Assembly (NCBI RefSeq): GCF_003334255.1
Contig: NZ_QOWU01000248.1
Origin: Escherichia coli
GTDB lineage: Bacteria; Pseudomonadota; Gammaproteobacteria; Enterobacterales; Enterobacteriaceae
DNA length: 393 nucleotides
Strand: one strand, 5' to 3'
Of this stretch, positions 1 through 194 are shown piece by piece (position 1 is the first letter of the stretch; each line of letters starts with the position of its first letter). The notes below the pieces were generated by a model that saw only the letters and a list, made by a program, of their open reading frames with translations, ran no database searches and was not told the DNA's origin. The position numbers and the translations under genes are program-made.

Positions 1-93
1 CACCGGGGTTTACCGCGTTAACGGAGCGCGGCGTTGTCCCCTCATGGTCGCTGGTCCGGTGCGATGGTGGAAGAAACTGGATTTTGTTGCAAC

Positions 94-108
94 TGACAAT
101 CATTATCA
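94..108. promoter_or_regulatory. Fur-box-like site (TGACAATCATTATCA)
   Basis: Matches the Fur-box 7-1-7 palindrome TGATAATnATTATCA at 13 of 14 defined positions. The extended 19-mer at 89-107 matches GATAATGATAATCATTATC at 15 of 19. The regulated transcript and its direction are not evident in the window. Confidence 0.4.
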
Positions 109-194
109 TTTTGCCGGGTCCTTTCCGGCGATCCGGGCCGTTACGGGGCGGCGACCTCGCGGATTTTCACTATTTATGAAAATTTTCCGGGATC

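Follow-up and report, generated by a model that had tools for sequence, protein, structure and literature searches.

The cos regions of lambda and related elements are organised around a common set of subsites, including: (i) cosQ, the packaging-termination signal, whose role and conservation are described (PMC4669245), (ii) cosN, the terminase nicking site, where CG dinucleotides flank both nick positions (PMC4669245), (iii) I2, the segment between cosN and cosB that is needed for termination (PMC4669245), and (iv) cosB, in which the R3 repeat is placed at bp 48-60, with bp 56 and 59 critical (PMC4669245, PMC9026076). Within the lambda-type cos group, the 12-base 5′ cohesive end is strongly identical to that of lambda, especially at bp 1-6 (PMC4669245). 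The cos regions of phage 21, N15/Monarch and the E. coli phage-inducible chromosomal islands follow the same principle as the locus described here, in which a shared core is combined with a group-specific cosB and terminase small-subunit (TerS) domain.

The window analysed here, i.e., the whole 393-nucleotide stretch of E. coli DNA, shares with lambda cos (PMC4669245, PMC9026076) the cosQ sequence and its spacing, the 22-bp cosN core, the cohesive end, an I2 that is identical at 26 of 28 positions, and the order of these elements. Unlike lambda, the window has unrelated cosB repeats, a TerS N-terminal domain that cannot be aligned and a weak candidate site for integration host factor (IHF). 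The cosQ-cosN core is thus known biology of the textbook lambda type, set on a cosB/TerS specificity that is rarely sampled. Window 1-180 very probably holds no gene; the conserved cos core occupies the right half of that segment, and the left part belongs to a separate non-coding module.

Source and gene neighbourhood

The window has an exact match (100% identity) in prophage DNA on three E. coli chromosomes and shares 99% identity with PhiR12_1 to PhiR12_5, five propagated phages with records in prophage order. It is set between the lysis/Rha genes and the terminase genes of a lambda-like prophage. Of 5,426 E. coli genomes, 78 have the entire window. In the sequence extended around it (L001, where window position 1 is L001 5001), the gene of a Rha-family regulator ends 107 nt before the window, while in PhiR12_1 the upstream gene is Rz. 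Downstream, the genes for TerS, the terminase large subunit (TerL), the head-tail joining protein W, the portal and the protease follow in this order and are intact. The first of these begins in the window:

341-393, + strand, 5′ end of the terminase small-subunit gene (GTG start, 169 aa; RefSeq and phage annotation)

The TerS protein matches phrog_57 and phrog_1790 (E 1e-55 to 1e-67). Directly upstream of its GTG start is a direct repeat, TTGTGAGGTGAG (310-321) and TTGCGAGGTGAG (327-338), which provides two Shine-Dalgarno-like GAGGTGAG motifs, only the second of which is suitably spaced from the start codon. Farther upstream, a DNA methyltransferase gene (L001 2770-3705) is found within the lysis cassette, between the lysozyme and Rz-type lysis genes, and is missing at the equivalent place in PhiR12_1.

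The cosQ-cosN-I2 core

Window 94-190 aligns to the joined ends of lambda at 89% identity, with the junction at window 145|146. The homology to lambda begins at window 94, and the sequence to the left of this position is unrelated to the right end of lambda. The features of this block and its left border, assigned by comparison with lambda unless stated otherwise, are:

86-93, 8-bp palindrome GTTGCAAC at the junction of the left module and the lambda-shared block, read from the sequence
95-107, palindrome GACAATCATTATC upstream of cosQ, 12 of 13 positions identical to lambda 48,453-48,465 (GATAATCATTATC)
116-122, + strand, cosQ (GGGTCCT), packaging-termination signal, 7 of 7 identical to lambda 48,473-48,479
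141-162, cosN, terminase nicking site, 22 of 22 identical to lambda 48,498-48,502 plus 1-17
146-157, 12-base 5′ cohesive end GGGCGGCGACCT, 12 of 12 identical to lambda
163-190, I2-equivalent spacer between cosN and cosB, 26 of 28 identical to lambda bp 18-45

The predicted nicks fall between 145 and 146 on the top strand and between 157 and 158 on the bottom strand. The cosN reads TTACG|GGGCGGCGACCT|CGCGG, with each 5-bp flank identical to lambda at all five positions, and CG dinucleotides are beside both predicted nick positions. From cosQ to the top-strand nick the distance is 23 bp in the window and in lambda, and the start of the TerS gene is placed at a similar distance in the two (196 bp in the window vs. 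191 bp in lambda). On the basis of this homology, we infer that window 94-190 is a lambda-like cohesive-end site.

Conservation beyond lambda follows the same elements. No variation in cosQ is seen among nine phages found by BLAST, one of which, VT1-Sakai, has a different cosN. Among 89 unique cos sequences, which were gathered with a search pattern over positions 115-134 only, the columns 141-190 (including the cosN nick flanks and I2) were unconstrained by the search and are strongly conserved. The types of left and right arm recombine around the cos core in several combinations, as expected of a mosaic.

Many E. coli prophages are cryptic, and the DLP12 and Qin prophages of K-12 retain similar cos cores beside truncated terminase genes. 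The site could, on this precedent, be the decayed cos remnant of a defective prophage, with its function lost. Such a reading is decidedly improbable, however, as the neighbouring TerS, TerL, W, portal and protease genes are intact and every position known to matter is that of lambda. In addition, the propagated phages PhiR12_1 to PhiR12_5 share the 393 bases with a right half that is identical; the four differences between the window and PhiR12_1 (positions 29, 53, 113 and 114) are all outside of cosQ, cosN and I2. A functional lambda-like cos is the preferred reading of this block.

The palindrome upstream of cosQ had been described by the first-pass annotation as a Fur-box-like site. It is instead a conserved palindrome of the cos region: in most lambda-type cos regions the 13-bp form GA(C/T)AATCATTATC precedes cosQ by 8-9 bp, and it is replaced in the 4A7/IdasGreatGrand type. 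A described function for this palindrome was not found. The resemblance to Fur boxes has some basis, in that the sequence is like the AT-rich Fur palindrome and the lambda version (GATAATCATTATC) fits the right-hand 13 bases of the consensus. The 19-bp Fur consensus (GATAATGATAATCATTATC), however, has no match in the window within three mismatches, the palindrome itself differing from it at more than three positions. Moreover, a scan of the region finds no promoter-like site, no gene is placed for regulation and the block is missing from some functional cos regions. Thus, it is very unlikely that 95-107 is a Fur box and that the region downstream is an iron-regulated leader.

cosB and the specificity of packaging initiation

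To the right of I2, the resemblance to lambda is one of layout and not of sequence. A cosB-like region of a different specificity is recognised by its repeats and their geometry, the DNA itself being shared only with the PhiR12 phages:

191-301, cosB-like region
195-206, R3-like repeat CATGTCCGGTTT, a 12-mer at bp 50-61 from the nick, identical to lambda at one of the 12 positions of R3
207-252, spacer of 70% A+T with A-tracts, between the R3-like repeat and the inverted copies
253-263 and 283-293, inverted copies AACCGGACATG (bp 108-118 and 138-148)
290-301, same-sense copy CATGACCGGTTT (bp 145-156), which overlaps the inverted copy at 283-293

The layout of this region is canonical for cosB, with one repeat near bp 48-60 and further repeats, some of them inverted; the binding of TerS to these repeats is putative. 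As in lambda, an R3-like site (here at bp 50-61) is followed by inverted partners past an A+T-rich spacer. The best candidate for an IHF site between R3 and R2 agrees with the consensus at seven of nine positions and is weak, with lambda I1 scoring eight of nine in the same scan. A scan for intrinsic terminators found terminator-like matches only on the cosB repeats.

The terminase proteins show a related division. Over the full length of the protein, TerL shares 66% identity with lambda gpA. N15, the terminase of which is interchangeable with that of lambda at cosN and cosQ (PMC4669245), is at the same level. The C-terminal part of TerS is 46% identical to residues 86-177 of lambda Nu1, while its N-terminal, DNA-binding part cannot be aligned; the confinement of this likeness to the C-terminal part is consistent with a diverged cosB. 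Among 50,697 phage records, those of the PhiR12 phages alone contain full-length relatives of this TerS. Because the cosB repeats are unrelated to those of lambda and the TerS N-terminal domain is unalignable, the specificity of packaging initiation should differ from that of lambda. The AACCGGACATG repeats (three to four copies) and the TerS N-terminal domain form a packaging-specificity type that spans window 191-393. The locus differs from the phage-inducible chromosomal islands by its R-type repeats and its complete set of head genes.

By homology to lambda, the small terminase subunit would bind the cosB repeats (window ~195-301) and position the large subunit to make two nicks in cosN that are 12 bases apart (145/146 on the top strand and 157/158 on the bottom strand), which would yield the cohesive end GGGCGGCGACCT. 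The DNA would then be pumped into the head, rightwards from cosB, until the next cos on the concatemer, where cosQ, cosN and I2 would be needed to recognise and nick the site and end packaging.

The conserved module of the left arm

The sequence to the left of the lambda-shared block is the 3′ part of a longer conserved element, the features of which in the window are:

1-82, + strand, 3′ part of a non-coding module of ~180 nt (the whole is window -98 to +82, L001 4902-5082)
13-17 (CCGCG) and 27-31 (CGCGG), + strand, arms of a hairpin specific to the window type and absent from lambda-type copies
54-60 (GTCCGGT) and 76-82 (ACTGGAT), + strand, arms of the terminal hairpin, in which one pair switches among G-C, U-A and G-U

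The collected loci include 42 copies of this module (29 unique) by BLAST. In some copies the module adjoins the cos block, and in others it is hundreds of bases upstream. The N15-like phage YDC107_1 (Ravinvirus) has the module twice (452-631 and 1402-1582, ~950 bp apart), the two copies flanking a hypothetical gene. Among complete E. coli genomes, the module is found in 1,853 of 5,426, at 4,485 places, and in 40 sampled genomes no PGAP feature is annotated under it. The exact core of the module is essentially confined to Escherichia, with seven matches among species-representative genomes; for this reason the alignment was not broadened.

More diverged, full-length copies are detected with a covariance model built from 18 copies of the module. 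This model identifies unannotated copies in lambda (46,867-47,033, between bor and lambdap78; 87 bits) and in the DLP12 prophage of K-12 (NC_000913 579,008-579,175, between borD and ybcV; 91 bits). A copy in the Sakai strain (NC_002695.2 1,946,755-1,946,935) is likewise unannotated. In many lambdoid phages, among them lambda, the module follows the lysis genes.

Searches of the module for known elements were negative: Rfam 15 has no match to it, tRNA and promoter scans found nothing, and no coding signal is apparent in any frame. Its hairpins were considered as an intrinsic terminator and rejected, as the T-run is not conserved among the copies. Literature searches gave no relevant result, either for the module sequence or for a lambda RNA or processing site in the interval from bor to cos. 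On the + strand of the module, two sequences approach Chi, GATGGTGG (63-70, seven of eight positions) and GCTGGTCC (50-57, six of eight). These are 75-95 bp to the left of the predicted right chromosome end and are not kept as Chi in other copies of the module.

Open reading frames of the left half

The coding status of window 1-180 had been left undecided by the first-pass annotation, which pointed to two long frames: + frame 3, open from position 3 to the TGA at 178-180, and a minus frame that is free of stops over 166-1 and has an ATG at 109-107. Both are confirmed, with a third-position GC of 63.8% and 65.5%, respectively. A third open frame, absent from that account, is + frame 2, which is free of stops through the whole of 1-180 and contains an ATG ORF at 44-253 (69 codons). 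Open frames of this length are nevertheless expected of the sequence: in 5,000 dinucleotide-preserving shuffles of window 1-180, the longest stop-free run is equalled or exceeded in 80% and the second-longest is matched in 42%. The open frames are by-products of composition. Extension of the sequence upstream, as had been proposed, shows that both of the frames first noted are short and isolated, with no connection to a flanking gene. There, the + frame-3 ORF has a total of 68 codons, from a GTG start 28 nt to the left of the window, and the minus ORF from ATG-109 has 40 codons.

A real small gene would correspond to the 68-codon ORF in + frame 3, the 69-codon ORF in + frame 2 or the 40-codon minus ORF from ATG-109, as these frames are open and automated pipelines call small ORFs here in certain phages (Turner, IdasGreatGrand, 4A7 and PhiR12_1). 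The comparative evidence argues against all three. Among the 29 unique copies of the left part, relatives that are 92-95% identical already have in-frame stops in + frame 3, indels of one and two bases are present, and the variable columns are distributed as 12/14/13 over the codon phases, i.e., without a three-base periodicity. Across all six frames pN/pS is 0.45-1.9, with the two frames of the earlier account at 0.65-0.66. The minus ORF has a frameshift in the Stx1 phages and stops in copies at a greater distance; its start codon is immediately to the right of the palindrome at 95-107, and the ORF bridges two modules that stand ~350 bp apart in other phages. The + frames 2 and 3 run across the cosN nick and would, at the predicted position, be interrupted in the linear virion chromosome.

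Codon usage gave a divided result, in that the + ORF resembles out-of-frame sequence while the 40-codon minus ORF appears gene-like (0.71), a value calculated on 38 codons only. Family searches gave no convincing match. NCBIfam has no hit, and the one PHROGs match, to phrog_6954 ('Rz-like spanin'), is weak (E = 9e-5) and divided over two frames. The match touches two + frames at about -28 to +94 (profile positions 27-48 and 53-67). That a single profile weakly matches two different + frames of a non-coding module suggests that phrog_6954 arose from spurious ORFs called over the module and carries an unreliable functional label. The pipelines themselves disagree on the strand and position of the ORFs called in the region; PGAP calls none, and neither the PGAP annotation nor the phage record has a + strand gene within window 1-340. 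A small gene in any of the three frames is, on this evidence, extremely unlikely.

A fourth candidate, a minus ORF from the GTG at 3-1, is open in 27 of the 29 unique copies. Its pN/pS (0.59) is no better than that of other frames, and it is broken by a frameshift in lambda and by stops in three further lineages; it was dropped on these two grounds. The coding reading of all four ORFs was thus abandoned on the combined results of frame survival, periodicity, pN/pS, codon usage and family searches.

Of the three origins that had been offered for the left half, the 3′ end of an upstream gene does not stand, since the upstream gene stops 107 nt before the window and the + frame is stopped in relatives of 92-95% identity. 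The 5′ end of a divergent gene fares no better: the minus ORF from ATG-109 is broken by frameshifts or stops in relatives and spans two modules. The proposal was still a reasonable one, as small divergent genes (YlcI/YnfO, DUF3950) are found in DLP12, Qin and lambda, upstream of noh/Nu1 on the minus strand and a few hundred bp to the left of cos. By contrast, neither the window nor its flank has a YlcI/DUF3950 homolog (tblastn E = 0.86), and the left arm is a different module. The lambda member of this family (48,112-48,303, minus strand) encodes a 64-aa product that is 100% identical to K-12 YlcI and is ~170 bp to the left of cosQ; no feature is annotated at this place in the NC_001416 record. 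K-12 YbcW is, likewise, identical to lambdap79. The third proposal, a structured non-coding leader, is the closest, as the region is non-coding and precedes the terminase gene within the late operon, with its left third in an element of suggestive RNA structure. The proposal missed the main feature of the region, which is cosQ/cosN.

The module as a candidate RNA element

Evidence that the module may act as RNA comes from its pairing pattern. A consensus fold, calculated on a structure-blind alignment of 43 copies, has an energy of -30.7 kcal/mol on the + strand vs. -11.3 kcal/mol on the minus strand (column shuffles, -8.2 +/- 2.7). The corresponding z-scores (-8.5 for the + strand and -1.2 for the minus strand) indicate a strand-specific fold. 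In the counts of pairs, 97-99% of the cells are paired, a level reached by none of 500 shuffles and reduced to 34-61% in slid registers. Most one-sided changes retain pairing through G-U. The covariation score and the number of double-change cells are above those of all 500 shuffles, while the number of pairs with double changes is reached by 4 of 500 shuffles on one alignment (A1) and, at four pairs, by 160 of 500 on the other (A2), and the number of pair types is reached by 223 of 500. The robust parts of the structure are a long hairpin to the left of the window and the terminal hairpin (54-60/76-82). The long hairpin is kept in the diverged lambda and DLP12 copies (87-91 bits), and the 3′ hairpins that fall within the window differ from one lineage to another.

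Transcription of the late operon would take in the whole region, and the pairing pattern is conserved only on the late-operon strand; the module would thus act as an RNA element in the late transcript, e.g., as a processing or stability element. That the module is functional as RNA is a candidate reading to which we give somewhat less than an even chance. A more specific form, in which it is an undescribed cis-acting RNA element of the lambdoid late transcript that would, for example, separate the mRNA of the lysis genes from that of the head genes, is put forward tentatively and as the less probable of the two statements. No expression data for the module were found.

The main rival to this view is that the module has no function as RNA and is instead conserved boundary or 'linker' DNA, or acts at the level of DNA. 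Lambdoid genomes are mosaic, and the module would persist because it is young and is spread by homologous recombination between lambdoid phages. This possibility also falls short of an even chance by our estimate and is in keeping with several observations: the module is found at module junctions in several contexts, its exact core is confined to Escherichia, and the close relationship of the copies inflates the covariation statistics. The conservative measures of covariation are not significant on the larger alignment, and the stability of the single sequence is that of shuffles (z = +0.64), i.e., there is no thermodynamic excess. Linker DNA does not, however, readily account for the strand asymmetry of the consensus fold, the G-U pairs that keep pairing in most one-sided changes, or the long hairpin that is kept in lambda and DLP12.

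Other conserved non-coding elements have fixed positions in lambdoid prophages, including the AgvB/AsxR, EcOnc and Pas small RNAs (sRNAs), and the module is like them in this respect. It is unlike them in that none maps to the module, a comparison that for the EcOnc set covers the first 33 rows of the published table; with that coverage, no published sRNA was found on the module. The anti-sRNAs described by Tree et al. are located 3′ of pR′ (PMC4104026), and the Pas sRNA probes have no match to the module. An apparent overlap of EcOnc11 with the module core was rejected. In Tree et al. 2014 Table S2, the coordinates at Sakai Sp10 are 139 bp below those of NC_002695.2, as calibrated with AgvB; after correction for this offset the overlap is lost, and the EcOnc11 peak is 23 nt beyond the module and on the other strand. 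The corrected EcOnc11, an abundant Hfq-bound RNA, is placed by these table entries at NC_002695.2 1,946,958-1,947,006 (minus strand), downstream of ECs_1967 and to the right of the module. EcOnc10 and EcOnc12 look like EcOnc11 homologs in Sp12 and Sp9; the window has no homolog of EcOnc11 as so located.

Significance for lambdoid phages and prophages of E. coli

For this family of prophages, the comparison with lambda predicts the chromosome ends (145/146 and 157/158, with cohesive end GGGCGGCGACCT), and several of the pipeline ORF calls across the region in phage genomes are shown to be spurious. The cosB repeats and the TerS DNA-binding domain represent a rarely sampled specificity group on a universal cosQ-cosN-I2 core, which is useful for work on packaging specificity and on the exploitation of helpers by satellites. 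Should the module prove functional, one of the most thoroughly studied operons would gain a regulatory RNA element, shared by lambda and thousands of prophages; it would be an element that has remained unannotated despite decades of work on lambda and that about a third of complete E. coli genomes contain.
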